From a virus, in IMG/VR virus record IMGVR_UViG_3300027782_000038: a stretch of DNA of 64,000 nucleotides; one strand, given 5' to 3'. This document shows, one piece after another, positions 1,742 to 17,567 of this stretch; position 1 is the stretch's first letter, and each line of letters opens with the position of its first letter. The notes below the pieces were generated by a model. That model made no database searches. It saw only the letters and a list, made by a program, of their open reading frames with translations, and was not told the DNA's origin. The position numbers and the translations under genes were made by a program.

Positions 1742-1745
1742 TATT

Positions 1746-2462
1746 ATGACTGCGACTGTGATTATACCAACAACTGGTGCAACTGAAGTTAGAAGTGCTA
1801 TAGAATCCGTATTAAATCAAACATACGACACAATTTGTTATGTTGTATGTGATGGTAACAAATTCAAAAGCAAAACAAAGGTAATCCTTGATGATTATCT
1901 TGGTAACAAAAATTTAAGAGTTTGTTACCTTCCGGAAAATGTAGGTGCAAATGGTTTCTATGGACACCGTGTATATGCATCATTCACACATTTAGTAAAT
2001 ACAGAATATGTGATGTACCTAGACCAAGACAATTGGTTGGAAAAAACTCATGTTCAATCCTGTATAGATACAATCATTGATAAAAAACTCCAATGGTGTC
2101 ACTCCCTCAGAAACATTTACGACAAACAATCTAACTTTGTATGTGAAGATAATTGCGAATCACTTGGTAAGTGGATGGCATGGACGAATACATATCATAT
2201 AGATACTAATACATATTTCTTAAAAAGAGAAATTGCAATTAAATTAGCAAGTGCATGGCATGGTGGTTGGGGACAAGATAGAGTATTTTTACAAGTAATC
2301 AATCAGTATTTTCCACAAACATATAGTTGTACTGGTGAATATACGGTGAATTATCGTGTTGATGGTGGTGAAGGATCAGTTAATAAAGAGTTCTTCATCA
2401 AAGGTAATGAATTTATGATTGACAAATATAATGGAGAATTTCCTTGGAAGAAAAAGATTTAG
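1746..2462 (+). CDS. Glycosyltransferase family 2
   Basis: TVIIPT...AIESVLNQTY...VVCDG and YLDQD (DxD) motif. Confidence 0.9.
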   Translation: MTATVIIPTTGATEVRSAIESVLNQTYDTICYVVCDGNKFKSKTKVILDDYLGNKNLRVCYLPENVGANGFYGHRVYASFTHLVNTEYVMYLDQDNWLEKTHVQSCIDTIIDKKLQWCHSLRNIYDKQSNFVCEDNCESLGKWMAWTNTYHIDTNTYFLKREIAIKLASAWHGGWGQDRVFLQVINQYFPQTYSCTGEYTVNYRVDGGEGSVNKEFFIKGNEFMIDKYNGEFPWKKKI

Positions 2463-3316
2463 TAATTGGTTTCATTACAGATTATACAGACTACGGTAAA
2501 ATAAAACCATATGTGAATTCACTGAATCGTTGTGGATTTACTGGTGATAAGATCATGGTAGTTTACAATATTGGTTACGATATCGTCAACCAACTACAAC
2601 AAGATGGATTTACAGTTATTGGTTTCGAACGTGATGAAATCAATAATAGATTTGTATACAAACAAAAATTTAATGTTGTTGTAAGTAGATTCTTCCATAT
2701 TTGGTTTCTACTCAAAGAAATGGAAAAGAAATATCGTTACGTCATATCTGTTGATGTGGCTGATGTTATATTTCAGAAAAACCCTTCAGCCTGGCTTGCA
2801 GAAAACATGAATGGTAAAAAACTTTGTGTTGGTGCTGAGAATCTGAAATATAAAGATGAGTCTTGGGGTATCCACAATATGTACCAATCTTTTGGTGATA
2901 TTGCTGCCATCTATATGCAAGATAAACCAATCTATAATGCTGGTACAGTTGCCGGAGAGTTTGACACCTTCTTAGACTTCTGTTATAATATATTCTTATT
3001 GTGTCAAGGTGCACCTATGGATGTTCCTGGCGGTGGAGGTCCTGACCAAGCTGCATTGAATATATTGTTATCATTAGAACCATATAAATCAATTACCAAA
3101 TTTAATACACATGAAGATGATTGGGCTTGTCAATGTGGTACTACTGTTGATCCAAACAAGATTAATAGTTTCAGACCAAACTTCTTAGTCAAAACCGAAC
3201 CTGTTTGGCGTGATAACGATAGTGTGTATAATAATAAAGATGATAAGTATGTTTTGGTTCATCAATATAATCGTGTTCCGGAATGGAATGAAAAATTAAG
3301 GAAGAAATATGAGTGA
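2444..3316 (+). CDS. Putative GT-A fold glycosyltransferase
   Basis: VDVADVIFQKNP (DxxD), YNAG, DQAALN, VHQYNR motifs; cluster context. Confidence 0.65.
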   Translation: MEEKDLVIGFITDYTDYGKIKPYVNSLNRCGFTGDKIMVVYNIGYDIVNQLQQDGFTVIGFERDEINNRFVYKQKFNVVVSRFFHIWFLLKEMEKKYRYVISVDVADVIFQKNPSAWLAENMNGKKLCVGAENLKYKDESWGIHNMYQSFGDIAAIYMQDKPIYNAGTVAGEFDTFLDFCYNIFLLCQGAPMDVPGGGGPDQAALNILLSLEPYKSITKFNTHEDDWACQCGTTVDPNKINSFRPNFLVKTEPVWRDNDSVYNNKDDKYVLVHQYNRVPEWNEKLRKKYE

Positions 3317-3953
3317 TGTGATTACATATAATACTGAAACAAATCAATACACTAAACAGGAAGCGCACGTTGATCCATGGGAACATCTAGATGTTGATGG
3401 TTGGGTACAGAAACAAGTTGAGTGGGGTGAAGCAAACCCTTCAGGTCGTGGATTGATTCCTTATCTACAGAAGTTGGGTACTGATCTTGTTGGTGCAGAG
3501 ATTGGTGTTTGTCTTGGTGTTACCGCAGAATTAATTCTAAAAGATAAAGACACAAACATTAAAACATACTATGCTGTGGATAATTATCCAACATATATTG
3601 ATTGGAATGATTTACCAATTACAACAGAACGCCAAGAAAGAATTAAATTAAACGCATATAATCGTTTATTCCCGCATGGAGAAGTTGCATTTGTTTACGA
3701 AGATAGTAAAACATTTGCTGAATCTATTGGTGATGAATCATTGGATTTTATCTTCATTGATGCTGATCACACATACGAAGGTGCTTTGCGTGACTTCAAA
3801 CAGTTTTGGCCTAAAGTAAAGAAAGGTGGTATTTTTTCCGGTCATGATTTGAATATACCAACAGTCAATAAAGCAATTCGTGAATTCTTTGGTGAAAAGG
3901 CAAGTAAAATTATTCCTCTAATTGATAACGCTTGGTTATATTATAAGGATTAA
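3309..3953 (+). CDS. Class I SAM-dependent methyltransferase (Methyltransf_24-like)
   Basis: GAEIGV, DFIFIDADHTYE, KKGGIFSGHD. Confidence 0.85.
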   Translation: MSDVITYNTETNQYTKQEAHVDPWEHLDVDGWVQKQVEWGEANPSGRGLIPYLQKLGTDLVGAEIGVCLGVTAELILKDKDTNIKTYYAVDNYPTYIDWNDLPITTERQERIKLNAYNRLFPHGEVAFVYEDSKTFAESIGDESLDFIFIDADHTYEGALRDFKQFWPKVKKGGIFSGHDLNIPTVNKAIREFFGEKASKIIPLIDNAWLYYKD

Positions 3954-3954
3954 T

Positions 3955-4509
3955 ATGTACTGTTCACAATTGGGTCAGGACAAATTAGTAGATGATTACT
4001 TAAAAGAAAAAAGAGATGTATATTTTCTAGATATTGGTTGTTGTCATTGGGACTATATGAGCAATACCTGTTTCTTTGAGAAGGTAAGAAATTGGAAAGG
4101 TATTGGTGTTGATTTGATGGAAAAGTATGCCGGTGAGTGGGAACAACATAGACCAAATAGTATATTTCATTTAGGCAATGCAGTTGAAGTTGATTATCAG
4201 AAATTATTAGATGATAATAATGCACCTATGGTTATTGATTATTTAACCATTGATGTTGATCCACCAACAACACTATCACTTGAAGCCTTATATGCAGTTT
4301 TTAAATCCAATCGTAAATTTAATGTGATCACTTTTGAAACTGATTATGGTGGTGATGTTGAATGTAACTTCACAAGACCTGGCACCTGTGATGCATCTAG
4401 GGAGTTTTTGATAGATAGGGGTTATAAATTAATCTCTGAAATATATACTAGAAATGATACTTATCATGTAGATGATTTTTGGGTTCATAATTCAATTATT
4501 GAGATATAA
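3955..4509 (+). CDS. FkbM-like methyltransferase
   Basis: SQLGQD, FLDIG, SNT, WKGIGVD, IDYLTIDVD; ATG at 3955 follows AAGGA. Confidence 0.75.
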   Translation: MYCSQLGQDKLVDDYLKEKRDVYFLDIGCCHWDYMSNTCFFEKVRNWKGIGVDLMEKYAGEWEQHRPNSIFHLGNAVEVDYQKLLDDNNAPMVIDYLTIDVDPPTTLSLEALYAVFKSNRKFNVITFETDYGGDVECNFTRPGTCDASREFLIDRGYKLISEIYTRNDTYHVDDFWVHNSIIEI

Positions 4510-4510
4510 A

Positions 4511-5506
4511 ATGAAAAAATATAAAAAGATTATTGTTTGGGGTGCAAAGCAAGATACTGGTCACACTCACGCTTTCATTCATGGTGCTATTGTTCGTGCT
4601 GCAAAAGCAATGGGCATTGAAACTTATTGGTTAGACAATCGTGATAATGTGACTGAAGAATTTTTTAATGATGCTATCATCATTACAGAACAATGGTTAG
4701 CATTTTATAATGGTTATAGTAATAATTTACCATTAAATAAAACTTCTTGTTATCTTGTGCATTATCTCGGAAATAAAGGTAATGTTGAGGGAAATCCTGG
4801 TGCAGAAATGTATCTAGGTAAAGTTGGTAAGTTGATTGATTTTAGATTTACTGCCGAACATGGTTGGGGTGTGAATGGTGAAATTGATAAGAATTATGCT
4901 TACATTTTCGACAAGAAAAATTACGAAGCATTTAATGATGTTTCTTATTATGAGGCAAATAGTTTTGATTATGATCGTTTCTATTCTATTTGGGCAACAG
5001 ACTTGTTACCTGAAGAAATAAATTTCGATCATAGATTTACTCCACAACAACGTAGAGCTTTCTTCTGTGGTACTATACGTCAAGATAATGCACCTGTGTT
5101 TGAGAATTTTGTTAAGAAATGTGAACAACATCAAATTCCATTTCTATACAGTACACCGTTCCAAAATCCGTTGTCTACAGAGGATGTTAGGAAAGCAGTT
5201 GTAGAATCATTGTTGCCCTTGGATTGCAGACCAGCAAATCATTTAGCAAATGGATACATTGCTTGTCGTACAATCAAGAACGTAAGTTACGGTGCTTTGG
5301 GTATGACTAACTCAAAATCAATTTATGATTTCTTTGAAGGTGAGATTGCATACGCTGCGGATTCAGGTGATTTATTCGATGTTGCAATGGAAATGCAGAA
5401 CGACCAAAAGACCAAAGATTTGATTTTGAATCAGATGAAACGAATTAAAGAACAACATACATACATTAACAGAGTGAACGATATTATTAAGGCGGCGGAG
5501 ATTTGA
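4511..5506 (+). CDS. Putative glycosyltransferase (GT-B-like)
   Basis: HTH.FIH N-terminus, GYIACRTIKNVSYG, C-terminal HTYINR; cluster context. Confidence 0.5.
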   Translation: MKKYKKIIVWGAKQDTGHTHAFIHGAIVRAAKAMGIETYWLDNRDNVTEEFFNDAIIITEQWLAFYNGYSNNLPLNKTSCYLVHYLGNKGNVEGNPGAEMYLGKVGKLIDFRFTAEHGWGVNGEIDKNYAYIFDKKNYEAFNDVSYYEANSFDYDRFYSIWATDLLPEEINFDHRFTPQQRRAFFCGTIRQDNAPVFENFVKKCEQHQIPFLYSTPFQNPLSTEDVRKAVVESLLPLDCRPANHLANGYIACRTIKNVSYGALGMTNSKSIYDFFEGEIAYAADSGDLFDVAMEMQNDQKTKDLILNQMKRIKEQHTYINRVNDIIKAAEI

Positions 5507-5507
5507 T

Positions 5508-6371
5508 ATGAAAATTTTGATTACAGGTCATATGGGTTTTGTTGGTAAATACTTCATGCGTAAGTACAAAGACCATGACATTACAGGTATTGATATTAAA
5601 GAAGGTAATGATTGTCGTGATTTCTTTAAGACTGATGATAACCACTACGACATGATTATTCATTTGGCTGCTATCGTTGGTGGTCGTGAAACAATTGAAA
5701 ATAATCCATTATCAGTAGCAACAGATTTAGCAATTGATTCTGATATGATGCAATGGGCATTGAGAACAAAACCAAAACGAGTTATTTATTTTTCATCTTC
5801 TGCTGCATATCCGATTCATATACAAGAACATGGCGGCTTTAGATTACGTGAATCAGACATTAAATTAAATGATATTAGAAATCCTGATTTAACATATGGT
5901 TGGGCTAAATTGACAGGTGAGTATTGCTTACAATTCCTACAAGAAAAAGGAATTCGTGTTCATGTATTCAGACCATTTAGTGGCTATGGTACAGACCAAG
6001 ACTTGTCATATCCATTCCCATCATTCATCAAACGAGCAAATGATTTAATGAACCCATTTGATATTTGGGGTGATGGCAATCAAGTTCGTGATTTCATTCA
6101 TATGCAAGATATTGTGGATGCTGTTGATGAGGCAATCAAGCAAGATATTCAAGGACCTGTAAATCTTGGTTCTGGTAATGCAACATCATTCAATAAATTG
6201 AAAGAAATTGTTTGTGGTATTCGAGGATATAATCCAGAAGTTAATCACATCGAAACAGCACCAGTTGGTGTGATGTATCGTGTTGCATATCCAAATAAAA
6301 TGTTATCTTTTTATAAACCAAAAATTAATTTGTATGATGGAATTTCTCGTGCATTGAGGGGTGAAATTTAA
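5508..6371 (+). CDS. NAD-dependent nucleotide-sugar epimerase/dehydratase
   Basis: ILITGHMGFVG Rossmann motif, HLAA, SSSAAY, YGWAK (YxxxK), WGDGNQVRDFIH. Confidence 0.92.
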   Translation: MKILITGHMGFVGKYFMRKYKDHDITGIDIKEGNDCRDFFKTDDNHYDMIIHLAAIVGGRETIENNPLSVATDLAIDSDMMQWALRTKPKRVIYFSSSAAYPIHIQEHGGFRLRESDIKLNDIRNPDLTYGWAKLTGEYCLQFLQEKGIRVHVFRPFSGYGTDQDLSYPFPSFIKRANDLMNPFDIWGDGNQVRDFIHMQDIVDAVDEAIKQDIQGPVNLGSGNATSFNKLKEIVCGIRGYNPEVNHIETAPVGVMYRVAYPNKMLSFYKPKINLYDGISRALRGEI

Positions 6372-6976
6372 TGGAATTCATTTATAATACAGCTAATGCG
6401 TCCATTGTAAAGAAATCCCAGAATAAAATAATTGACATTGGTTCTGGTCCACATCCAAAACCTGATGCAGATGTTCTTATGGACATTCACCAATGGGGTA
6501 ATGTAAATTGTTTACATAATCTAATGGACACTCCTTATCCATTTGAAGATAATACTTTTGAGAAAGCATACATGGGTGATGTAGTCGAACACATTTCCAT
6601 TTTTGATATTAATAGAGTATTAACCGAAGTCTGTCGTATACTAAAACCTGGTGCAACACTAGAAGTTACTGTACCTGATATGGACTGGATTATAGAAAGA
6701 CTTTATAAAAAAGATTGGAATCACCATGCTAATGTTGATTGGTTGAACCCAACAGATGATCCATGGAAAAATGCTTTATCTTATTTGTTCGGTGGGTTTC
6801 ATAATAAAGATGAATACAAACTAGAAGGAATGGGACACCTTAACGCATTTAATCAAAAATCACTCAAAGAATTATTAGAAAATAATGGATTTATTGATTG
6901 TGACCGTCATCCTGATATGAGAAATCCTGAACCTGCTAGAATGTCAGTTCTTAAAATGGTATGCAAGAAAGCATGA
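6371..6976 (+). CDS. SAM-dependent methyltransferase (type 11)
   Basis: IDIGSG, PFEDNTF, VVEH, RILKPGA. Confidence 0.85.
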   Translation: MEFIYNTANASIVKKSQNKIIDIGSGPHPKPDADVLMDIHQWGNVNCLHNLMDTPYPFEDNTFEKAYMGDVVEHISIFDINRVLTEVCRILKPGATLEVTVPDMDWIIERLYKKDWNHHANVDWLNPTDDPWKNALSYLFGGFHNKDEYKLEGMGHLNAFNQKSLKELLENNGFIDCDRHPDMRNPEPARMSVLKMVCKKA

Positions 6977-7935
6977 AAATATTATTTGTAGTACATCGTT
7001 ATGCACCTTATCCTGGTGGCTCAGAATATAATGTTCAAAGAACAGCTGAAGAATGTGTTCGCCGTGGCATTGAAGTCACTGTTGTTGCCGGTGAACATAA
7101 AGGAGATTTAAATGGAGTTACTGTTACTTCTGGTGTTAATCCTGATGACTTTGACCTTATTGTAATACATGGTGGTGATGTTTCTGTTCAGAATCTATTT
7201 CTACAGAATATTAACAATTTCAAGGCACCAGTCCTTTATTGGTTAATCAAGCCATCAGAAAGTCCAATCTGTTTGCAAGCATTAAAAGACGCAAAATATA
7301 TTGGCTGTTCTACAGAAGAAGATTGGGAACACGTTGAGAAATGGGGTGTTAAAGATAAGTCATATAAGATTGCATACGGTATCAAAGAAGAAGATGCTGG
7401 TACAGTTGGAATATTCAAGAAAAAGTATGGTATTGCTGATGATGTAAAAATGTTCTTATCTTGTGGCGGTTATTGGCCTAATAAGAGAATGAAAGAATTG
7501 GCATCAGCATTTAAAGAAGCAAATCTTGAAAATGCAGTTCTTGTAACAACAGGTTATGACAATCGACACGATTTAATGCCAGAAGCCTCACATAATGTTA
7601 TTCCTTTGATGATTGAAGATCCATCGGAAATCAAAGATGCCATGGCCGATGCATATTGTTATATTATGAATTCTGATGCAGAGGGTTTTGGGCTTGTTTT
7701 ATTGGAATCCATGTTAAATTGTACACCTTGGATTTCTCGTAATATTGCTGGTGCAAAATTGATGAGTGATTATGGTTGTGTGTATGATACTGAAGAAGAT
7801 TTGACTCTTATTCTTAAACTTTGGCAAGAAGATGGATGGGGTCTTACCCGAACTGATGCGGCATATGATTTTGTTACTGAAAATAACTTAATTAAAAATA
7901 CGGTAGATGATATACTTAAAATAATAAATATATAA
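6973..7935 (+). CDS. Glycosyltransferase family 4 (GT-B)
   Basis: MKILFV..Y.PYPGGSE, EGFGLVLLESM (EX7E). Confidence 0.88.
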   Translation: MKILFVVHRYAPYPGGSEYNVQRTAEECVRRGIEVTVVAGEHKGDLNGVTVTSGVNPDDFDLIVIHGGDVSVQNLFLQNINNFKAPVLYWLIKPSESPICLQALKDAKYIGCSTEEDWEHVEKWGVKDKSYKIAYGIKEEDAGTVGIFKKKYGIADDVKMFLSCGGYWPNKRMKELASAFKEANLENAVLVTTGYDNRHDLMPEASHNVIPLMIEDPSEIKDAMADAYCYIMNSDAEGFGLVLLESMLNCTPWISRNIAGAKLMSDYGCVYDTEEDLTLILKLWQEDGWGLTRTDAAYDFVTENNLIKNTVDDILKIINI

Positions 7936-7938
7936 ATA
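7931..7938 (+). promoter_or_regulatory. T4-type late promoter
   Basis: TATAAATA directly upstream of the internal-head-protein cluster. Confidence 0.75.
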
Positions 7939-7996: not shown

Positions 7997-8446
7997 ATGA
8001 AATCATTTATAACTTTTCTAAAAGAATCTACCGAAGGTGAGGAAGGTGCCAAACTAAAGCATATTCACCATGCGGAAGATCGTCCTCTCATGCACGGTGC
8101 TGCTGGTTTTGAACACGCTCATGCCGCTTTAATGAAAGCTCACGAACATATCAAACGTGGTGAACATCATTCTGGTCTTACCATGAAATATGATGGTTCA
8201 CCTTCTATTGTTTTTGGTCATCACCCAACTACTGGTAAGTTTTTTGTTGCATCTAAGTCAGCATTTAACAAAACACCAAAAATCAACTATACACACAAAG
8301 ATATCGAAAAAAATCATGGTCATGCACCAGGATTGGTCAGTAAACTGAAGGATTCTTTAGATCATTTACCTAAAGTTGCACCAAAGAAAGGTGTGTATCA
8401 AGGTGATGTAATGTTCTCACATGGAGATGTTCATAGTCATGAGTAA
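7997..8446 (+). CDS. DUF6267-like, ligase-type nucleotidyltransferase, N-terminal half; His-rich
   Basis: MKYDGSP (KxDG motif I), YQGD; CTS-like N-terminus MKSFITFLKE. Confidence 0.65.
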   Translation: MKSFITFLKESTEGEEGAKLKHIHHAEDRPLMHGAAGFEHAHAALMKAHEHIKRGEHHSGLTMKYDGSPSIVFGHHPTTGKFFVASKSAFNKTPKINYTHKDIEKNHGHAPGLVSKLKDSLDHLPKVAPKKGVYQGDVMFSHGDVHSHE

Positions 8447-9176
8447 AGTATCTTTCACCCCAAATACCATCACTTATACGGCTAAGGGTCCTGAAGCCGA
8501 TAAGATCAAACGTGCTAAAGTTGGTGTTGTTGTACATACACAATATCACGGAAAAGACCTTGATTCAATGAGAGCTGATCCACATCCGGATACAGAAAAA
8601 TTTAAACAACATCCGGATGTTTGGCATAAATCAGCAGAACATGATACTAGTAAAGTTCATTATGCTAAAAAGGCACAAGATACATTTCAACATCATATGG
8701 ATGCAGCAAAAGACATTCACGAAAAGCACGGCCATGAAATGTATGCTGCTACAGAAAGACACCAAGGTGATGCAGGTCATTTGTCAACATATATAAATCA
8801 CACAGTTCGTACAGGTGAAAAACCTACGGCTGCTGGTTTACAAAAACATATCATGGGTAAACATATCCGTGAAGCTGAAAAAGTTAAGACTGATGCATCA
8901 AAAGAAAAGAAATTGACTGCTGGTAAAGAACACGTTGAACATATTGAACAAAATAAAAAACATTACAATAATTTGTTGAATATGCACGGACATTTACAGA
9001 AAGCAAAAGATGTTCTAGTTCACACACTCAACCAACATGAAGGTGGTTTAGAACATGATATTAGTGGTAAAAAAACACAACCTGAAGGTTTTGTTGTACA
9101 CCATGATAATGAACCAACCAAACTAGTAAATCGTAAAGAATTTGCAAGAGCTAACTTATTAAAGGTGCGTAAATGA
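8439..9176 (+). CDS. DUF6267-like protein, C-terminal half (split or frameshifted gene); His-rich
   Basis: FTPNTITY, PEGFVV (motif IV-like), TKLVNRKEF (motif V-like); ATGAGTAA overlap with the upstream ORF. Confidence 0.65.
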   Translation: MSKVSFTPNTITYTAKGPEADKIKRAKVGVVVHTQYHGKDLDSMRADPHPDTEKFKQHPDVWHKSAEHDTSKVHYAKKAQDTFQHHMDAAKDIHEKHGHEMYAATERHQGDAGHLSTYINHTVRTGEKPTAAGLQKHIMGKHIREAEKVKTDASKEKKLTAGKEHVEHIEQNKKHYNNLLNMHGHLQKAKDVLVHTLNQHEGGLEHDISGKKTQPEGFVVHHDNEPTKLVNRKEFARANLLKVRK

Positions 9177-10135
9177 TAACATTTAAATCATATCTGTTAG
9201 AAGGTCGGGGTATACTAACTGCTTCAGGTGTTACTGGTGAAGATCATAAAAAAAGATATATTGATCCTCATGTAGGTTCAAAAACACCCACTCACGTTTT
9301 AGCAAAAGAACATGATGATATTCCAGCAGGTTCGGCCGTAAAAATTCATAAAGTCGAACATATAAATGGTAAAATACACGTTCATGCTGAAGATGAGACT
9401 GGAAATCATCATGTAATTCCTATTTCTAAATTACATAAACCTGGTGATCAACCTAAAAATAAAGGTCATGAATACGAATCTAAATTTGTTGAAAGATTGA
9501 AAAAACATAAAATTATGCCTAAACATTTATCTGGAGCTGGTTCAACTAGCGGCACTGATTTTTCTGTTCATAATAAGAAAAAAGGAACTTTTACTACAGG
9601 TACAGTTTCCGGTCACTTATTGAATGGTGAAACTAAAAATGGCACTACTGCCGCAATGGGACAATTAACAATACATCATGACAGTGAAAAAGGTTGGCAT
9701 ATTAAAGATTCTCAAAGAGCTAAACGTCCAGAATATGCAAAACATATTGAGAAATCTGGTATATTGAAACACATGAATAAACACGAACCTGAACCTGAGA
9801 AATCTGAAACTACAGCTAGTGGTCGTACAAAGTCAATTGAAATTAAACATCCAAATTTACATCCAGCTGAAGCTTATTTAAAAGATCATCATGTCCATGT
9901 GTTACAAGTAGGTGGCCACGGAACTTATAAAGTTGGTGAAAAAGATGAAACTGGTCACGGTTTACCATCAATTTCAGGTAAAGGTAAGTGGAGAATCAGA
10001 GAAAAACAAAAGGGCAATAAGAGTGCTAGAACTGTGGCTTTCCATCCCGATGGTGTTAAAGGTTTAAATAAGAGTCATGTTGATTTAGATAAAGATGAAG
10101 ATTTACATAAATTTAAAAAGACATTAGGACATTAA
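9173..10135 (+). CDS. His-rich putative internal head protein with possible PD-(D/E)xK nuclease fold
   Basis: MITFKSYLLE start; GHEYE...GTDF...NGETK spacing resembles the restriction-endonuclease motif. Confidence 0.45.
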   Translation: MITFKSYLLEGRGILTASGVTGEDHKKRYIDPHVGSKTPTHVLAKEHDDIPAGSAVKIHKVEHINGKIHVHAEDETGNHHVIPISKLHKPGDQPKNKGHEYESKFVERLKKHKIMPKHLSGAGSTSGTDFSVHNKKKGTFTTGTVSGHLLNGETKNGTTAAMGQLTIHHDSEKGWHIKDSQRAKRPEYAKHIEKSGILKHMNKHEPEPEKSETTASGRTKSIEIKHPNLHPAEAYLKDHHVHVLQVGGHGTYKVGEKDETGHGLPSISGKGKWRIREKQKGNKSARTVAFHPDGVKGLNKSHVDLDKDEDLHKFKKTLGH

Positions 10136-10140
10136 AATTA

Positions 10141-12294
10141 ATGAAATCATTCCTACAGTTGGTTGAGGAACAAGACAAGGCACATAAACCTGTGGTGATG
10201 GCATTCGGTCGTATGAATCCACCTACCACGGGTCACCTGAAACTTATTGATAAAGTTCGTGAAGTTGCAAAAAAACAAAAAGCAGAACATACTGTTATTG
10301 TATCACATTCACAAGATAGTAAGAAGAATCCTTTATCTGGTGAACAGAAAGTAAAACATCTGAAAAGATATTCACCAGGTACTAATTTTGACACTTCAAG
10401 TAAAGAACACCCATCAATATTTCATCATGCTGCCAAATTACACGCAGCTGGACATGATCATTTGACGGTTGTTGCTGGTTCAGATCGTGTTAAAGAATTC
10501 CATGATGCACTACACAAATATAATGGTGTTCATGGCAAACATGGTTATTACAATTTCAAAAAGATTTCGGTAGTTTCTGCTGGGGCTCGTGATCCTGATG
10601 CTGAAGGTGCGGAAGGTATGTCTGGTACTAAGATGCGTGAACATGCCAAGAATAATGATTTTAATTCTTTCCGTCAAGGTGTTCCTTCACACGTTCCAGA
10701 CAAACACGCTAAAGAATTGATGCATGATACTCGTAAGGGTATGGGTTTGCATGAAGATGTGAATCGTGGTCGATTTAAAGCAATATTTGTTACTGGTGGT
10801 CCTGGTTCAGGTAAAGATATTATCATTCGTGAATCTATTGCTGAATCACGCATTGTAGAATTGAATTTCATTCAAGCATTTGACTATCTAACCGACAAAC
10901 AAAAATTATCAGAAAAATCAAATGATTACCGTAGAGAGTCGATTCGTACCCGTGGTCCATTGATTGTTAATGGACCTGCTGATGATGTAGATAAAATATC
11001 TTATATCAAAGAAGAATTGGAAGAACTTGGTTATGATACCATGATGGTATTTGTTAATACATCAAATGAAACAAGCAAAGTACGTAATTCCTTATTATCT
11101 AGAATGATGTCAGAATCCGTCAGACAGGATAAGTGGATGAAATCACAAGAAAATGGTGATTTTTTCATGGAAAAATTTAGTACCTTCATTTCCTTTGACA
11201 ATACAGGAAACATAGATACTATAGAAGAAGATATCACTAATGTTTATCAATCTACCAAAATGTTTTTGGATGAGAAAGACCTTAATGAATCTGCATCAAC
11301 ATGGTTGGATAGAAATTTAAACATCAATGATAAAATTAATTCATTGTTCAAGGAAAACAAAAATGTTAAAGAAAATGCTAAAGAAAATTCTAAATCTATT
11401 CAGAAAGCAAACCTCAGAACCAAAGGCTGTGGAAAACACAGATTCCTTGCCGACAGCACCTGTAAAGGTTGTCTTGCAGTCAGAGGTCCAGCAGACGTTA
11501 CGCCAGACAACAGAGGTGGTGCAACCGGTCCTTACGGAGACTCCATCAAAGGCAACACATTCCCGAGAAAAAACCCCAACGGAACAACCTACACCTTCGG
11601 TGCAGGAGCAGGCGTCTACGCCGAAGCCAAAACGCCAACGATCAAAGTCAGTCCGACACCCAAAGAGTTCAACTTCCAAAAAGACGCAAACACGGAAAGA
11701 TTAAAGAAATTTGGTGATAAGTCACTAAGTGCATCTCGTGTTGGTAAACCCTCAGGTATTGGTCCTGAATATGATACCCGTGCTGGTGGCCAAGGTGCTG
11801 CAGCAGGTGCAGGTTTAGGTCTACAAACATATAGTGAATCTCAGGAATATAGTAACGCACAACCATCCAGTGCAGCATTGCCAGGTAGTTCTGCATTACA
11901 ACCAAACCCACTTAGTAATAGTTATGATGTAAAAAAAGACTTTTCTAGTTTCAGAAAGAAAATTAAAAAAGAAGCCATTGATGATCCAGGAGCAAACGAT
12001 ATGGGTGTATATGGTGTTCTTGGTGGTGCAGGAAATAAGGAAGGCATGGATACTTACAAAGATCCTATGCGTAACATCGGTATCACTATTAAAAAGAAAA
12101 AAAAGTTCAATGAGGACCATGTAAAAGAATTAGAAAATGGTTTACATGAATTAGATAAATATACCTATCAGTCTATCAATAAATTAATGCAATCTATAGC
12201 AAAAAGACATGATATAACGGGTAAAGATTTACATGATGATTTTAAAGATAAGCACAATAAAACTCCTGATGATTGGATCAAGAACAAAAAATGA
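10141..12294 (+). CDS. Cytidyltransferase-like (HIGH) domain fused to a P-loop kinase domain and low-complexity tail
   Basis: FGRMNPPTTGH, KNPL, VAGSDR, MSGTKMR; then AIFVTGGPGSGK. Confidence 0.85.
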   Translation: MKSFLQLVEEQDKAHKPVVMAFGRMNPPTTGHLKLIDKVREVAKKQKAEHTVIVSHSQDSKKNPLSGEQKVKHLKRYSPGTNFDTSSKEHPSIFHHAAKLHAAGHDHLTVVAGSDRVKEFHDALHKYNGVHGKHGYYNFKKISVVSAGARDPDAEGAEGMSGTKMREHAKNNDFNSFRQGVPSHVPDKHAKELMHDTRKGMGLHEDVNRGRFKAIFVTGGPGSGKDIIIRESIAESRIVELNFIQAFDYLTDKQKLSEKSNDYRRESIRTRGPLIVNGPADDVDKISYIKEELEELGYDTMMVFVNTSNETSKVRNSLLSRMMSESVRQDKWMKSQENGDFFMEKFSTFISFDNTGNIDTIEEDITNVYQSTKMFLDEKDLNESASTWLDRNLNINDKINSLFKENKNVKENAKENSKSIQKANLRTKGCGKHRFLADSTCKGCLAVRGPADVTPDNRGGATGPYGDSIKGNTFPRKNPNGTTYTFGAGAGVYAEAKTPTIKVSPTPKEFNFQKDANTERLKKFGDKSLSASRVGKPSGIGPEYDTRAGGQGAAAGAGLGLQTYSESQEYSNAQPSSAALPGSSALQPNPLSNSYDVKKDFSSFRKKIKKEAIDDPGANDMGVYGVLGGAGNKEGMDTYKDPMRNIGITIKKKKKFNEDHVKELENGLHELDKYTYQSINKLMQSIAKRHDITGKDLHDDFKDKHNKTPDDWIKNKK
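11363..11704 (+). CDS. Overprinted 113-aa protein in the +1 frame of the cytidyltransferase gene
   Basis: AAGGA SD before the ATG, amphipathic start MLKKMLKKILNLFRK, P/T/S-rich body, basic tail; local C-rich composition shift. Confidence 0.5.
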   Translation: MLKKMLKKILNLFRKQTSEPKAVENTDSLPTAPVKVVLQSEVQQTLRQTTEVVQPVLTETPSKATHSREKTPTEQPTPSVQEQASTPKPKRQRSKSVRHPKSSTSKKTQTRKD

Positions 12295-12545
12295 AATCAT
12301 TTAAAAATTATCTTGAAGAAGATTTACGACAATGGTTCAAGCAAAAATGGGTTCGCATGGACACCAAAGGAAATATTAAAGGTGATTGTGCTAGAGAACC
12401 CGGTGAAGGTAAGCCAAAATGTTTACCTCAAGCGAAAGCACAAGCTTTAGGTAAAGAAGGTCGTGCTTCTGCTGCTCAAAGAAAACGTAGAGAAGATCCT
12501 AATCCGGAACGGCGTGGTAAACCAATTAACGTTAGCACAAAATAA
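12291..12545 (+). CDS. Small basic putative internal head protein
   Basis: MKSFKNYLEE CTS-like start; LRQWFKQKWV...C...KPKCLP module. Confidence 0.7.
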   Translation: MKSFKNYLEEDLRQWFKQKWVRMDTKGNIKGDCAREPGEGKPKCLPQAKAQALGKEGRASAAQRKRREDPNPERRGKPINVSTK

Positions 12546-12546
12546 C

Positions 12547-13620
12547 ATGAAAAAATTTAAAGAATTTAAAGAAATTATATCAGAAAAAAATGTTCCCACT
12601 AGTCCAGAAAAATGGGCTCGGGCAAAAGCAGCTGCTAAATCCAAGTTTGCTGTTTATCCTTCTGCTTACGCAAATGGTTGGGCATCTAAAAAATATAAGT
12701 CAATGGGTGGTGGATGGAGAAGTACCCAAGAAGAAGTTGAATTGGAAGAAATTTACCATGATCCTTGGAAAGATAAACATTTTGGTCCGACAAAAGTAAT
12801 CAAACAAAAATATAAAGTTAAGACAGATACCAAAACATATAATGTTAAAGCTGACAGTGAAAAACACGCACATGAATTGGTAACCAATCATGCTCCGGGT
12901 TCCAAAATTGTTTCTATTGAACATAAAGGTCGCTTCATGGAACAAGTTGAAGAAAAAGATGATGGGGATGATTTACCAGAACATGAAGTGGAAGTATTTG
13001 ATTATGATACAAACTACTTTCATATATGTCCTTCTGCTACTAAATTATACAAAGATATTGAAGATAAAGTAGAACCTGAAGATCATGATTTATTTGAAGG
13101 CATGGCAAAACTACAAGATTGTATTTTCTTTATTGAACAACATTTGACAGAAAAAAAAGGTTCTGCAAAAGAAGATGACATGGGTTATCTTTTGATGGCA
13201 CAGAATATCAAAGACCAACTCGACCTTATGCTTTCTATGACAACTCCTGAAATGCGTATGGAACACGGATACCTACAAGGTCATATTGAGGTAATTAAAG
13301 AACTTCTTGATTGGGAAAACCGCAAAGAAGAATTAGATGAACAATATGAATGGTTAGAAGAATCTGCTGCATGGAAAAGAAAAGAAGGTAAAAGTCCCAC
13401 TGGAGGATTAAATGCAAAAGGTATCGCTTCTTACCGTAGAGAAAATCCTGGTTCAAAATTAAGTATGGCCGTTACAGGTAAAGTAAAAGCAGGAAGTAAA
13501 GCAGCTAAAAGAAGAAAGTCATTTTGTGCTAGGATGGGTGGTATGCCTGGTCCAATGAAAAAACCCAATGGTGAACCAACAAGAAAATCACTTGCTCTAA
13601 GCAAGTGGAAATGCAGATAA
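12547..13620 (+). CDS. Modular putative head protein (DUF5872-like N-terminal and DUF6321-like C-terminal modules)
   Basis: KFAVYPSAYANGW...GGGWR and AAWKRKEGK..GGLN...RRKSFCARM modules separated by acidic LEE linkers. Confidence 0.65.
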   Translation: MKKFKEFKEIISEKNVPTSPEKWARAKAAAKSKFAVYPSAYANGWASKKYKSMGGGWRSTQEEVELEEIYHDPWKDKHFGPTKVIKQKYKVKTDTKTYNVKADSEKHAHELVTNHAPGSKIVSIEHKGRFMEQVEEKDDGDDLPEHEVEVFDYDTNYFHICPSATKLYKDIEDKVEPEDHDLFEGMAKLQDCIFFIEQHLTEKKGSAKEDDMGYLLMAQNIKDQLDLMLSMTTPEMRMEHGYLQGHIEVIKELLDWENRKEELDEQYEWLEESAAWKRKEGKSPTGGLNAKGIASYRRENPGSKLSMAVTGKVKAGSKAAKRRKSFCARMGGMPGPMKKPNGEPTRKSLALSKWKCR

Positions 13621-13633
13621 CAGGAGAATTATA

Positions 13634-15442
13634 ATGTTTGCAAAAGACAAAGTATCACAATCAATGGTAGACGCAGTAAATTCCGTATTAATGGAAAAGA
13701 AAATGCATGATGTTGAACTAGATGAAACTGGTCTACGTAAAGCTGCATATGCTGCACACAAATCAGGTCAAACTCATTTTGAATTTCAGGGTAAAACTTA
13801 TCCAGTAAAAGTTCAAGGTAAAAACATTATGGCCGGTGAATCAGTTGATGAAGCCTCTGTCAAAGTACCTACCAAAACAGGTACAATGGTTTATGGTGGA
13901 GCTAAAGGTGGTTCTGGTAAAGCATATCTACAACAAAAATATGGTGATGATCTTGCTGACGTTCACGGTCCTTCAGATAAAGACCTAGAAGCAATTAAGC
14001 ACGAAAAGAAAAAGAAAAAAGAAGTTGAAGAAGATTTCAATATTGAAGATTTCTCATTGGAAGAAATTCAAGATTTCATGCAAACTGAAGAATACTACCA
14101 ATTGGATGAATTGAGTAAAGACACTCTCAAAAGATATATTCCTACTGCGGCCGCAGATTTAAGTAAAAAAGGCATTAATGCTGGTATTGATGCTAAATCT
14201 GGTAAAACTGGCGTAACAAAAGCATATGGTGATCATTTTCAAAAAAGATATCGTGGTATTCTTAAAGCAACTAATAAATTAGCTAAAGAAGAAGTAGAAG
14301 GTGTGAATGAAGGTCTAATGAAAACTATTGGTGGTATTCTTGGTGGCAAAAAAGAAAAATCAACAGAAAAATCAACAAATCTTTTTGATCAACCTGATGT
14401 CAAGAAAGACACAAAAGATTATTTGAAGAAATCTGCCAAACAACCAAATGGTCCAAATACAGTTAAAAATATTTTTTCAAAAGAAGAAAATACTTCATTT
14501 GCTTACCGTCTACTACAAAGTATTAGAGAAGGTAAGGGTAATCAACCACAAGAAACATTCACCGACAACAATATTGGTGAAGCCGGTGTTGATCCTTCAG
14601 TTAAAACAACAGATACACTTTCTGGTCGTAAACCTGGTGGTAAATTAAATCAACATGGTCCTGATCCTAAGATTAAATTGAAATCTGAAGAAAAAGAGGA
14701 AGATGAAGGCCATGAAGATGAGAAAGAAGATAAAAAACTTATCAAGAAAATGGTTAAGTCTGATTGCGTGAAAGAAGAAGATGTTACTGAAGCAATGGAT
14801 ACCCGTGCTGACGTACCTGCTTTCTTACGCAAACAACGTGGTGACAAACCTTTGACTCCTGATGAAGTTAAAGCAAAGAAACCAGACACAAGATCAGCTC
14901 CAGGTAATGTTAAAGAGGCTGAGGAAAAAGAACCTCCTTTTGCTGGCCCTTATACAAAATCAAAAGGTACTGTTACAGACAAATCTGGTGCAAAACATAC
15001 TCCAATGTCCCGTGTTAAAGATTTAGCTCGCCAATCAATGAAGAAAGTTAAGACTGAAACTTTGATGGGTACGGCTGGTGCAACTTCAGAATCAGTTGAA
15101 GAATTGGATGAATTGAATGATAAAACCGTGGCTTCCTATATCAGTAAAAGAATGACAGGTGTATTGGGTGGAGAATATAAACGGGGCCAAAAAGATCAAG
15201 AGGCAAAATCCCGTACAGGTGGTTTTAATCCATTTGATGCGAAAGCACATAAACGAAAAGAAGGATTAAAAAGAGCTGTTGGTCGTTTAGCTAAAGAAGA
15301 AGTTGAAGAACTTGATGAAGATGCTATGTTGGATGTTTATCTAAAGTCTAGAGGCCTTAATCCTGCAACTATACCTACAGACAAAAAGATTGCATATGCA
15401 AAAGGCTCAGATTTTCTGAGATGGAAGCAAAATCATTCTTAA
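13634..15442 (+). CDS. Large modular putative internal head polyprotein
   Basis: Basic modules separated by repeated EEVEELDE-type linkers. Confidence 0.6.
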   Translation: MFAKDKVSQSMVDAVNSVLMEKKMHDVELDETGLRKAAYAAHKSGQTHFEFQGKTYPVKVQGKNIMAGESVDEASVKVPTKTGTMVYGGAKGGSGKAYLQQKYGDDLADVHGPSDKDLEAIKHEKKKKKEVEEDFNIEDFSLEEIQDFMQTEEYYQLDELSKDTLKRYIPTAAADLSKKGINAGIDAKSGKTGVTKAYGDHFQKRYRGILKATNKLAKEEVEGVNEGLMKTIGGILGGKKEKSTEKSTNLFDQPDVKKDTKDYLKKSAKQPNGPNTVKNIFSKEENTSFAYRLLQSIREGKGNQPQETFTDNNIGEAGVDPSVKTTDTLSGRKPGGKLNQHGPDPKIKLKSEEKEEDEGHEDEKEDKKLIKKMVKSDCVKEEDVTEAMDTRADVPAFLRKQRGDKPLTPDEVKAKKPDTRSAPGNVKEAEEKEPPFAGPYTKSKGTVTDKSGAKHTPMSRVKDLARQSMKKVKTETLMGTAGATSESVEELDELNDKTVASYISKRMTGVLGGEYKRGQKDQEAKSRTGGFNPFDAKAHKRKEGLKRAVGRLAKEEVEELDEDAMLDVYLKSRGLNPATIPTDKKIAYAKGSDFLRWKQNHS

Positions 15443-15455
15443 TAAGAAAAAATAT

Positions 15456-15932
15456 ATGTCTAAGAAACTAAAAGATTTTATTAAGAAGAATCCTGAACCA
15501 GCTGGCGGAACAAATAATAATCCAAGCCAGTTGGGACAGTATTCATCAAAATATAATATCAGTGAAGCTCCCACATTGGATCGTTATCTATTATCAAGAG
15601 GTATAGATCCAAAACGGACTGCACTTTCAACAAAGATTGGTCACTCTAAATCTTCGTTGTTTATGAAATGGAAAAATGATCATCAATTTGAAGAAGTTGA
15701 ACAGACTTATGGTAAAAAATCAAAGATAAGCAAAGAATCATCAATTGGTGAAAATAAACCATCGGCTGCTTCAACCTTAACTGGCGGTAAAACATTAACA
15801 GGTAATTCTAGAGATAATGTTGAAATTGATCCGATGATGAAAACCAATAAACCAGATCAACCATTAAAAGATAGTACTGAAAAGAAGAAAAACTTTAGTG
15901 GTCTCAGAAAAGAATTAAAGATAAATAGGTAA
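15456..15932 (+). CDS. Hypothetical head-associated protein
   Basis: Shares a YL.SRG..P...K...F..WK..H module with the C-terminus of the upstream ORF. Confidence 0.6.
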   Translation: MSKKLKDFIKKNPEPAGGTNNNPSQLGQYSSKYNISEAPTLDRYLLSRGIDPKRTALSTKIGHSKSSLFMKWKNDHQFEEVEQTYGKKSKISKESSIGENKPSAASTLTGGKTLTGNSRDNVEIDPMMKTNKPDQPLKDSTEKKKNFSGLRKELKINR

Positions 15933-15959
15933 CATAACCCAAGGTTAAAGGAGATAGAA

Positions 15960-16613
15960 ATGGCTTTATGGGGAACTACAGATGCTGCTAACAGCAAACC
16001 AATACTTCCGGTAGAAAGAGAAGTCGTATCAATTACATCATTAGTAACACAAAACGCAACTATTGCAACCGCTAACACAATTACGTTTCAAAAAATTGCT
16101 GGTTCCAATTCTATTCCTTCAAACATTATTGTTGGATCTTTTGTTTATTCATTAGATGCAAACAATGCTGTTTCTAGGTATACTGATGGTACTATCATTA
16201 CTCAAAATGAAGTTGCTTTCTTTAAATCAAATAATAGGGTCGTTGCAGTCGATAGTGCTAATAGTACTGTTAGATTAGCAAATACATTAGTTGCAGTTTT
16301 AGCTAATAACTCGACTGTTTGGTTTGCAAATTTGATCACATACAAAGCAAACACACAAGCTAATACTTATTACTTAGATACAGTTTTGATGACACCCGGT
16401 CGTGTTGCTAATAACAGAACTTCATCGGCCTCACCAGCTGTAGCTAACATTGGTAATATGAATCAAGGTTGGGTACACGTTCAAAAGAAAACTAATGGTG
16501 GCGATGGTGCTGTGCGTTATATAACTGAAACATTGGTTGCACTTGCTAATACATCAGCTGCTAATACTGCATCTGGTAATACAAGTTTTGGTAGATTTGT
16601 TTCTGGTCTTTAA
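15960..16613 (+). CDS. Putative virion structural protein
   Basis: MALWGTTD start, GWV...RY..ETLVA C-terminus, N/T/S/A-rich; strong SD; GATAAATA late-like promoter at 15920. Confidence 0.6.
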   Translation: MALWGTTDAANSKPILPVEREVVSITSLVTQNATIATANTITFQKIAGSNSIPSNIIVGSFVYSLDANNAVSRYTDGTIITQNEVAFFKSNNRVVAVDSANSTVRLANTLVAVLANNSTVWFANLITYKANTQANTYYLDTVLMTPGRVANNRTSSASPAVANIGNMNQGWVHVQKKTNGGDGAVRYITETLVALANTSAANTASGNTSFGRFVSGL

Positions 16614-16665
16614 TTAAATTTAAATAAATTATGAAAAAATAATATGATTATTACTGATGTGAAAT

Positions 16666-17052
16666 ATGTTTGATGACTTAAATGAAGATAATTTTCTGAT
16701 TTATGCGATAAAATGTTATATCGCTCCAAATTATATAATGTCTGAATTTGAAGGTGATCTTAAAAGAACAAAATATCTTAAAAGATTATTTCGTAGATAT
16801 AAGGTCACCAAATCAATTAAAGAACGATTGATATTAAATCACATTATTTTGTTGAATAATGTTTTTGGTCCAGAAGCAACATCAAGGATATTATTCTACA
16901 AGATAGATGAAAGAGATTATGACATTCTGAAAACTTTTCTGATATATCTTAATATTATGCCAGAAACAGTTTTTAACATAAATGGTAAAAACATATACTC
17001 TACTGATATTCCAGTGGATTTACAAGCGGCCGAGATATTAAGAAAAATATGA
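16666..17052 (+). CDS. Conserved T4-like phage hypothetical protein
   Basis: LNEDNFLIYA, EFEGDLKR.KYLKRL, ERLILNHII.L.NVFG motifs. Confidence 0.7.
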   Translation: MFDDLNEDNFLIYAIKCYIAPNYIMSEFEGDLKRTKYLKRLFRRYKVTKSIKERLILNHIILLNNVFGPEATSRILFYKIDERDYDILKTFLIYLNIMPETVFNINGKNIYSTDIPVDLQAAEILRKI

Positions 17053-17567
17053 TAAAATTCAAACAATACTTAGAAGAAGCCGATAAGAAAGATACAGTCA
17101 CAGTTGATATTCCTTTACTGATTCGTTTACTTGAACTCGCACGTGAAGATATCAAGTCTGATATGGATTTACATCGTGTTGTTGAACGACTCATTGATAT
17201 TCGTAATAAAGGCATACTAACAATGGATGATTATGATTTCATTGCACATATCAAAGAAGAATTTGTTAATGAACACATTGTTAAAGTCGGAGATCAATAT
17301 AGATTAGTATCAAAAAGTACAGGTAAAAATCTAGGAACATATCCTTCAAAGTCCGGCGCAGAAAAACGTGAAAAACAAGTTCAGTATTTCAAGCATATAG
17401 GTGAAGATGGTATTGCTGCAACAGGACCAACAAATGTAAATGTAGTAGGTGGTGGTGCTATAGCAGGTACAGGCGGGCTAGGTGGTGAACCTGGTGTTAA
17501 TTTACGTAATCGTAAAAAACAAAATCCAATTGTAATGGCTATGGGAAAAAGGAAAGCACTAGAATAA
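17049..17567 (+). CDS. Putative internal head protein
   Basis: MIKFKQYLEE CTS-like start; D.VT.DIPLLIRLLE.ARE and KNLGTYPS..GA.KRE modules. Confidence 0.6.
   Translation: MIKFKQYLEEADKKDTVTVDIPLLIRLLELAREDIKSDMDLHRVVERLIDIRNKGILTMDDYDFIAHIKEEFVNEHIVKVGDQYRLVSKSTGKNLGTYPSKSGAEKREKQVQYFKHIGEDGIAATGPTNVNVVGGGAIAGTGGLGGEPGVNLRNRKKQNPIVMAMGKRKALE

Follow-up and report, generated by a model that had tools for sequence, protein, structure and literature searches.

We analysed a stretch of 64,000 nucleotides (nt) from an uncultured T4-like phage (IMG/VR record IMGVR_UViG_3300027782_000038; hereafter the window) and concentrated on the genes at 7997-12294, among them a gene of the Pfam family DUF6267, encoding a ligase-like protein, and a gene encoding an NMNAT-like protein. 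A first, sequence-only reading had seen in this region one late operon of three gene units with capsid-targeting leaders, and took their products for enzymes injected to repair RNA or restore a cofactor. We explain the region best as the beginning of a head-targeted cargo-gene block of a T4-like phage, and the ligase-like and NMNAT-like genes recur together in nearly all the related loci that we could compare. The + strand carries every gene up to ~60 kb and the guanine plus cytosine content is ~35%; a search of deposited phages found no close relative of the window, and the gp183/gp184 region of phage Syn9 gave only short DNA matches of ~77% identity. The block comprises five open reading frames (ORFs) rather than three, counting the start of 12291-12545, which succeed one another with an 8-nt overlap, a 4-nt overlap, a 5-nt gap and a 4-nt overlap; primase and nrdA/nrdB lie downstream, ordered as in Syn9. 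To call the block a late operon is plausible, as the octamer upstream of it (Table 1) is placed as a T4-type late promoter would be and the genes follow one another closely or overlap. The octamer itself is not enriched in the window (8 observed vs 7.2 expected), and sigma-70 promoter and terminator scans remained at background level.

Table 1. Genes, protein domains and the promoter-like element of the block and its downstream flank (aa, amino acids).
Feature	Position	Strand	Evidence or remark
T4 late-promoter-like octamer TATAAATA	7931..7938	+	in the 61-nt gap before the block; 59 nt upstream of first ATG
DUF6267 ligase-like enzyme, N-terminal piece, 149 aa	7997..8446	+	PF19782 4.9e-45, phrog_455
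DUF6267 ligase-like enzyme, C-terminal piece, 245 aa	8439..9176	+	PF19782 4.7e-51
320-aa leader-tagged protein (MITFKSYLLE), candidate PD-(D/E)xK nuclease	9173..10135	+	invariant-residue signature in alignment
717-aa protein	10141..12294	+	leader MKSFLQLVEE, NMNAT-fold domain, P-loop kinase fold, C-terminal module
717-aa protein, residues 1-205: NMNAT-fold HIGH-type nucleotidyltransferase	10141..10755	+	PF01467 2e-6, TIGR00125
717-aa protein, residues 206-380: P-loop kinase-fold domain	10756..11280	+	GGPGSGKD, structural matches
717-aa protein, residues 381-717: low-complexity linker, second GLHE, C-terminal module	11281..12294	+	phrog_10346
84-aa leader-tagged gene (MKSFKNYLEE)	12291..12545	+	4-nt overlap with stop of 717-aa gene
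357-aa leader-like gene (MKKFKEFKEIISE), DUF5872 + DUF6321	12547..13620	+	true start ATG 12547
Last leader-bearing ORF of the window (MIKFKQYLEE), far end of tagged block	17049..17567	+	leader scan

The sequence-only reading had placed four ligase motifs (KYDG, QGD, EGFVV and TKLV) in one protein; all four are found where it saw them, but they are divided between two ORFs in different frames. The N-terminal piece holds, besides its leader MKSFITFLKE and a conserved HIHHAED stretch, KYDG (motif I, K64) at 8186-8197 and QGD (motif III-like) at 8399-8407, while the C-terminal piece comprises SFTPN, a helical insert, EGFVV (motif IV) at 9084-9098 and TKLVNR (motif V) at 9117-9134, so that QGD, EGFVV and TKLVNR stand in the canonical order of covalent nucleotidyltransferases. 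The first ORF matches positions 2-123 of the DUF6267 profile and the second positions 131-373, both together covering the first 334 positions of phrog_455. When 72 diverse homologues (32-71% identity) were aligned, K64 of motif I, K87 and the motif IV residues E365 and G366 were invariant, and D66, G67, Q135-G136-D137 and the motif V residues K377 and R381 nearly so.

The AlphaFold model of an intact relative (L053; predicted local distance difference test score, pLDDT, 94.5; predicted template modelling score, pTM, 0.91) was submitted to an exhaustive structural search by VIA-align, with Foldseek as a separate search. The top 14 VIA-align matches were all nucleotidyltransferase domains of ligases (Z 8.3-6.2, 167-202 aligned residues). 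RNA ligases ranked first (Naegleria Rnl 5cot, Z 8.3 over 187 aa; REL1, 8.0; Trl1, 7.7 and 7.4), with further matches to T4 Rnl2 (7.4), an archaeal RNA ligase (7.3) and T4 Rnl1 (6.9), and DNA ligases were also present at Z 6.3-5.3. Motif IV is preceded by an inserted helical domain of ~120 aa and motif I by a conserved HxxHxED stretch; no oligonucleotide-binding (OB) domain was seen in the model after motif V, where it ends with one helix. A Pfam scan of the protein returned only DUF6267, and none of PF09511, PF09414 or PF01068; sequence and profile searches of the PDB with DUF6267 found no ligase, and hhalign against the single sequences of T4 Rnl1 and Rnl2 placed EGFV on motif IV, with short, non-significant matches at motifs IV and V. 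Structure prediction bore out the ligase fold of the earlier reading, the adenylyltransferase domains of RNA ligases being the best matches (Z 8.3-6.9), and by this model of the intact relative the two ORFs together make up an enzyme that shares its adenylyltransferase fold with ATP-dependent RNA ligases; the Z scores are moderate, but the residues found invariant are ones that a ligase requires.

The two pieces overlap by 8 nt (ATGAGTAA), the second ATG overlapping the upstream stop; the first ORF ends ...HSHE-TAA and the second begins MSKVSFTPN, where intact relatives read ...GKVSFTPN. In ~70 related IMG/VR loci DUF6267 is a single intact ORF of 390-400 aa. The same split was found in an independent contig (L002), with a junction identical to that of the window and the same 8-nt ATG/TAA overlap; the DUF6267 genes of the two differ by 20 synonymous and 3 non-synonymous changes, and the ratio of non-synonymous to synonymous substitution rates (dN/dS) is 0.03 and 0.04 for the halves. 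Three representatives from different 50%-identity clusters (P0171, P0172 and P0209/L087) begin at this same residue, with MSK, MSDK or MAK; two of them have an N-terminal-half ORF of 145-146 aa just upstream, with an 8-nt overlap in one. The L087 junction reads CATGGCTAAGG vs CATGAGTAAAG in the window, with the same type of 8-nt ATG/TAA overlap, and the L087 halves are 65% and 54% identical to those of the window. By alignment and model, the break falls in a surface loop of variable length among homologues. A tree built to see whether the split had a single origin was poorly resolved; all four split forms fall in one clade of 14 members, which fits one origin or several.

A sequencing error or a recent pseudogene is ruled out by the identical L002 junction and the purifying selection on both halves, and is further countered by the occurrence of the same split in lineages only 54-65% identical. 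A programmed +1 frameshift was also rejected: neither GAG, the codon ahead of the stop, nor its L087 counterpart GGC could re-pair after a +1 shift, and the conserved ATG overlapping the stop points to two coupled ORFs and not to a frameshift signal. We read the split DUF6267 gene as a long-lived two-polypeptide form, which would be made by coupled translation, because the split recurs in diverged lineages and both halves are under purifying selection.

The L087 contig (ENA, 86.6 kb) carries at 1-6976 its split DUF6267 and a 200-aa NMNAT-like gene; the neighbours of this pair are genes with CsgG, CsgF, FecR and CHASE2 domains and two metallophosphatases, and the contig may belong either to a phage with unusual accessory genes or to a cell.

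The fourth gene encodes a 717-aa protein whose first domain contains PPTTGH (10219-10236) and SGTKMR, which are similar to the adenylyltransferase motifs (H/T)xGH and ISSTxxR; GGPGSGKD follows at 10795-10818. Pfam finds a cytidylyltransferase-like domain (PF01467, 2e-6) at residues 21-120. Curated NCBIfam models reached 16.3 bits vs a cut-off of 341 (TIGR01526) and 13.7 vs 112 (TIGR00482), only the generic TIGR00125 passing, and PDB sequence searches with the protein found no NMNAT. A model of residues 1-400 (pLDDT 88) showed two domains. For residues 15-205, VIA-align gave M. jannaschii NMNAT (1f9a) at Z 13.6 with 153 of the 164 residues aligned, then NadM (2qjt, 13.2), PPAT (12.1) and NaMN adenylyltransferases (~11.5), FAD synthetase scoring almost as high as NMNAT. 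Residues 206-380 matched the kinase of C. thermocellum Pnkp (4gp6, Z 13.0), Kti12 (12.7) and PSTK (12.3), with adenylate, guanylate and other small-molecule kinases at Z 10-11.6; the order of these matches to the model hints at polynucleotide or tRNA kinases, with differences that are within noise, and hhalign against the single T4 Pnk sequence aligned only the P-loop, non-significantly. Foldseek across both domains returned ATP sulfurylase/APS kinase and NadR (NadR, E 4.5e-7), and in VIA-align NadR aligned to the first domain only. The HIGH-type nucleotidyltransferase and the P-loop kinase anticipated from the sequence were both recovered by model and structural search, and in the predicted structure the product of the fourth gene combines an NMNAT-fold adenylyltransferase with a P-loop kinase fold. 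Judging from the models, we are highly confident of the folds of both enzymes.

Many relatives of the 717-aa protein consist of the first domain only (~200 aa) and end exactly at the window's first GLHE position, whereas longer relatives in the alignment keep [LI]xE at the domain junction (residue ~205). A second GLHE lies at aa 667-670, before the last 47 residues. The C-terminal module that follows it (~50-60 aa, 12139-12294; phrog_10346 matches residues 658-717) is a stand-alone small ORF in five loci (L017, L018, L021, L023 and L064), is elsewhere fused to the next gene's family, and matches the C-terminal end of several tagged-protein PHROGs. The 717-aa protein looks like a polyprotein that the prohead protease would cut, because relatives end at the GLHE position and the C-terminal module is separate elsewhere.

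The sequence-only reading had called for a synteny survey of these genes, and co-conservation of the ligase-like and NMNAT-like genes was confirmed: of the 74 loci long enough to tell, 71 have the NMNAT-like gene downstream of DUF6267, directly abutting it in 32 of them, and fusions of the two proteins exist in both orders; phrog_455 itself spans both. Our searches found more than 3,000 protein clusters for DUF6267 and more than 7,000 for its NMNAT-like neighbour. The corresponding cyanomyovirus families, T4-GC71 (DUF6267) and T4-GC190 (NMNAT-like), occur in every one of the 16 genomes that Sullivan et al. 2010 compared (PMC3037559), and the cyanophage gene order (gp43, gp41, the pair, gp61, nrdAB) places them in the region of replication genes. 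Among the matches listed from 470 deposited phage genomes, DUF6267 homologues were annotated only as 'hypothetical protein'.

The leaders noted earlier on all three gene units are indeed there (MKSFITFLKE at 7997, MITFKSYLLE at 9173 and MKSFLQLVEE at 10141). The same leader starts the ORFs at 12291 and 17049, with a leader-like start at 12547, and a six-frame regular-expression scan placed it at real gene starts only inside 7997-17567. Its pattern is M-x-x-F-x-x-[FYL]-[LV]-x-E, that is, Phe at position 4, Phe, Tyr or Leu at 7, Leu or Val at 8 and Glu at 10, and leaders are conserved in homologues; of the two ligase pieces only the N-terminal one is tagged. In T4 the internal proteins have their capsid targeting sequence in residues 1-10, with targeting mainly via residues 4 and 7, processing via residues 8 and 10 and cleavage after L/I-x-E, and this sequence is sufficient for the packaging and delivery of foreign proteins (PMC9026906). 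The leaders of the window follow these positional rules.

NMNAT-like orthologues have been detected by mass spectrometry in virions of the cyanophages S-SM1, S-SCSM1 and S-CREM2 (PMC3037559, PMC9602691, PMC10665884), and all three of those examined carry a leader (S-SM1 GC190, MKKFSAFLNE; S-SCSM1 NMNAT, MKSFLQFLKE; S-CREM2 gp154, MKNFSSFLTE). This correlation between leader and proteomics supports the leader as a packaging signal; the authors of two of these studies caution that abundant proteins may co-purify with virions, and cyanophage papers speculate that the virion NMNAT-like proteins adjust host NAD (PMC9602691, PMC10665884). A gp21-type protease is encoded in three relatives (G001, G002 and G004), and no gp21 homologue was found within the 64-kb window. 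From the leaders we consider it probable that the proteins of the block are packaged in the capsid.

The third gene of the block, encoding the 320-aa protein, had been listed in the sequence-only reading as PD-(D/E)xK-like; it is optional cargo, present in ~12 of 80 related loci, and no part of a fixed trio. In its 29 aligned homologues E102, D129, E153, K155 and Q164 are invariant, which makes it a candidate PD-(D/E)xK nuclease; only 221 homologues were found, the protein had no Pfam, PADLOC or PDB sequence match, and an atlas lead to R.HinP1I (0.81) was at chance level. In 39 of 71 loci varied genes fill the slot that separates the ligase-like gene from the NMNAT-like one, and 20 of the 42 inserted ORFs begin with a leader under the strict pattern. 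L002, which is 93% identical to the window in flanking DNA and 98% within the DUF6267 gene, carries in this slot (6102-7214) a different, 370-aa tagged gene. The slot is a hotspot of many unrelated genes, about half of them leader-tagged, and the 320-aa protein is one of several swappable slot genes.

Some further features of the window were recorded. GTG 12463 was rejected as the start of the 357-aa gene, whose true start is ATG 12547 (MKKFKEFKEIISE); its apparent overlap with the 84-aa gene was an artefact of ORF calling, and a second frameshift at 12463-12547 is dismissed with it. A 730-aa protein at 28017-30209 matches phrog_459 'peptidase' over its full length, and the C-terminal part of a 492-aa protein at 62335-63816 (- strand) is a metallo-endopeptidase/endolysin-like domain. 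The histidine content is 11-13% in each ligase piece, 10% in the 320-aa protein and 9.8% in the NMNAT-like domain; right after the GLHE site it falls to zero, the kinase domain (10756-11280) having no histidine at all.

What we can say of the rest of the genome comes from relatives with 57-64% identity in DUF6267, two of them complete (174 kb each). Both complete relatives encode a canonical ATP-dependent DNA ligase (PF01068) and a NadM-type NMNAT-Nudix gene directly upstream of Nampt, and one encodes an Rnl2-type RNA ligase; Tpt1 was found in neither. No NadM-Nudix/Nampt homologue was found within the window. A search of relatives for the Rnl1 family gave no match, a blank that means little since control genomes also gave none, and a PADLOC scan produced nothing relevant. 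At L092 1489-2460 and L089 991-2391 (relative G001) the NadM-type NMNAT-Nudix and Nampt genes are arranged as in known phage NAD+ salvage pairs. With a DNA ligase and NadM-Nampt in the relatives, the pair is no stand-in for a missing DNA ligase or NMNAT: a substitute for the replicative DNA ligase is rejected for the clade, given the PF01068 ligase of both complete relatives, and so is the idea of the phage's only NMNAT, given the NadM-Nudix gene beside Nampt.

Taking the block as head-targeted cargo, we suggest the following course of events. Leaders would load the proteins into the prohead core, a step for which support is good; a gp21-type protease would remove the leader after Glu10 and probably also cut the 717-aa protein at its GLHE sites, and the mature enzymes would be carried by the capsid and reach the host cell together with the DNA. 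The C-terminal ligase piece would need to enter in complex with the N-terminal one, because only the latter is tagged. Inside the cell the module might heal and seal broken polynucleotide ends, RNA being likelier than DNA: the kinase might phosphorylate 5'-OH ends and the ligase-fold enzyme might join ends via lysyl-AMP on K64. The NMNAT-fold partner could conceivably provide or regenerate the adenylyl donor, or transfer an adenylyl group to a 5'-phosphate as in the step from NMN to NAD, this being the most conjectural part, and the 320-aa nuclease-like protein may be an interchangeable extra cargo. As a whole, a capsid-delivered module for polynucleotide end healing and sealing in a T4-like phage is a tentative explanation, which we favour with somewhat less than even confidence, and end repair as the function of the module we hold more hesitantly still.

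Several observations weigh against this proposal. The Z scores of the ligase fold are moderate, Foldseek with the L053 model gave only weak DNA-ligase matches (E ~0.1), and a literature search for DUF6267 returned no papers on the family. The structural scores of the kinase domain hardly differ between kinases of polynucleotides, of tRNA and of small molecules; its P-loop, which is GGPGSGKD in all homologues with this domain, reads GKD and not GK[ST]; and in most of the family the NMNAT-like domain comes with no kinase. No 3'-end-healing phosphoesterase or phosphatase was found in the protein or the block. An extra repair ligase is not obviously needed where relatives have their own DNA ligase and, in one, an Rnl2-type ligase. 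The DUF6267 proteins of S-SM1 and Syn9 begin MCDSTL..., with no leader and no proteomic flag, from which it follows that packaging of DUF6267 is not universal and that the enzyme can work unpackaged. For this clade, cleavage, packaging and injection are predicted steps. Finally, a pair that is core to marine T4-like phages fits better with a general role in infection than with a niche counter-defence.

A wider formulation is that the pair is an unrecognised two-enzyme adenylyl-transfer system of most marine and freshwater T4-like phages, its members obligate partners and here both injected, which would repair RNA or DNA ends or restore a cofactor before phage protein synthesis, the ligase being workable as two polypeptides; we think this rather unlikely.

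Among the alternatives to end healing and sealing, an injected cofactor supply survives best. A NadR-like kinase step followed by an NMNAT step would restore NAD+ or a related dinucleotide as soon as the proteins are injected, which could for example counter host defences that deplete NAD+, and the ligase-fold partner would use the cofactor. NMNATs are the best fold matches of the N-terminal domain (Z 13.6-11), the Foldseek match to NadR runs across both domains in the same order (E 4.5e-7), and PPTTGH and SGTKMR resemble adenylyltransferase motifs. That virion NMNAT-like proteins adjust host NAD has already been proposed (PMC9602691, PMC10665884). However, relatives already have the standard NadM-Nudix/Nampt salvage pair, the NCBIfam models for NMNAT and NadR fall far below their cut-offs (16.3 vs 341 bits), and PPAT and FAD synthetase nearly match the NMNAT scores; most of the family lacks the kinase, which is probably removed by cleavage at GLHE, and the constant ligase-fold partner is left unexplained. 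We regard this explanation as unlikely.

More doubtful is a role in the care of the phage's own DNA at entry, in which the packaged ligase-fold enzyme and its partners would seal nicks or modify ends before phage expression. The leaders predict that the proteins sit with the DNA in the head; DNA ligases occur among the structural matches (Z 6.3-5.3), the cyanophage pair lies within the replication-gene region as the window has primase and nrdAB downstream, and the slot between the pair often holds nuclease-like cargo. Yet the enzyme does not have the OB domain that DNA ligases carry, RNA ligases outrank DNA ligases, relatives encode a canonical DNA ligase, and the analysis gave no sign of nicked genomes.

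Equally improbable, in our judgement, is that the enzymes work in the producing cell or the prohead, for example in making a small nucleotide-linked metabolite or modifying the head contents, and that the leader serves assembly rather than delivery, retention in the virion being incidental. That part of the pair works in the cytoplasm is indicated by the cyanophage DUF6267 proteins with neither leader nor proteomic flag, and fusions of a HIGH-type nucleotidyltransferase with a kinase are typical of small-molecule pathways (NadR, ATP sulfurylase/APS kinase), CoA synthase being another; the caution on co-purification also applies here (PMC9602691, PMC10665884). Against it, the leader matches a T4 sequence that is enough to get foreign proteins packaged and delivered (PMC9026906), it is present in all three orthologues detected in virions, and the block is full of similarly tagged, fast-swapped genes, as in the T4 internal proteins.

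Head-targeted cargo and virion-associated NMNAT-like proteins were already known. New are the assignment of DUF6267 to a ligase fold, its obligate pairing with an NMNAT-fold protein, the tagging of both and the stable two-piece ligase; the window adds the split gene, the variable cargo slot and the correlation of proteomics with leaders. Few genes without an assigned function are as widespread in the T4-like phages of oceans and lakes as DUF6267 and its NMNAT-like neighbour, and fold, coupling and tag give a testable meaning to the long-standing annotations 'hypothetical protein' and 'cytidylyltransferase'. If the pair is injected, these would be the first nucleic-acid joining enzymes delivered ready-made by a virion, and the recurrent NMNAT-like proteins of cyanophage particle proteomes would be explained. 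A stable two-piece ligase is also of interest for enzyme engineering.

Compared with known systems, the block resembles the internal proteins and Alt of T4 in its 10-residue leader (aromatic residue at 4, aromatic or hydrophobic at 7, L/V at 8, Glu at 10), in its diverse, fast-swapping and clustered tagged genes and in the gp21-type protease of relatives, and Alt is a precedent for a packaged enzyme; the cargo differs, being predicted nucleotidyl-transfer and kinase enzymes in the window and small anti-restriction proteins or an ADP-ribosyltransferase in T4. With the ATP-dependent RNA ligases (5cot, REL1, T4 Rnl2, T4 Rnl1 and Trl1) DUF6267 shares the fold, the KxDG lysine, the order of motifs III, IV and V and the lack of an OB domain. 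Unlike them, it has no sequence match to a ligase Pfam family or PDB chain, carries a ~120-aa helical insert between motifs IIIa and IV and HxxHxED before motif I, has an Asp in motif III and KxVxR as motif V, and in the window consists of two polypeptides.

The T4 Pnkp+Rnl1 and Pnkp/Hen1 systems likewise combine a P-loop kinase fold and a ligase fold in one neighbourhood, and the top structural match of the window's kinase is that of C. thermocellum Pnkp; on the other hand the search of the block revealed neither a 3'-phosphatase nor a cyclic phosphodiesterase, most members of the family have no kinase, and the constant NMNAT-fold partner occurs in no known repair system. T4 Pnkp and Rnl1 are moreover made early and are unpackaged, unlike the tagged enzymes of the window. 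NadR has the same succession of a HIGH-type NMNAT-fold domain and a P-loop kinase domain as the 717-aa protein, which differs from both NadR and NadM/NatV-Nampt in scoring far below the curated models, in being leader-tagged and in being always paired with a ligase-fold enzyme, relatives keeping a separate NadM-Nampt pair. A further counterpart is the cyanophage T4-GC190 'cytidylyltransferase' or NMNAT-like protein, with an orthologous domain (32-44% identity), the same leader and, in Syn9 and S-SM1, the DUF6267 gene (T4-GC71) upstream; the version of the window adds the kinase, the long linker and the C-terminal module, and its DUF6267 neighbour is both tagged and split.

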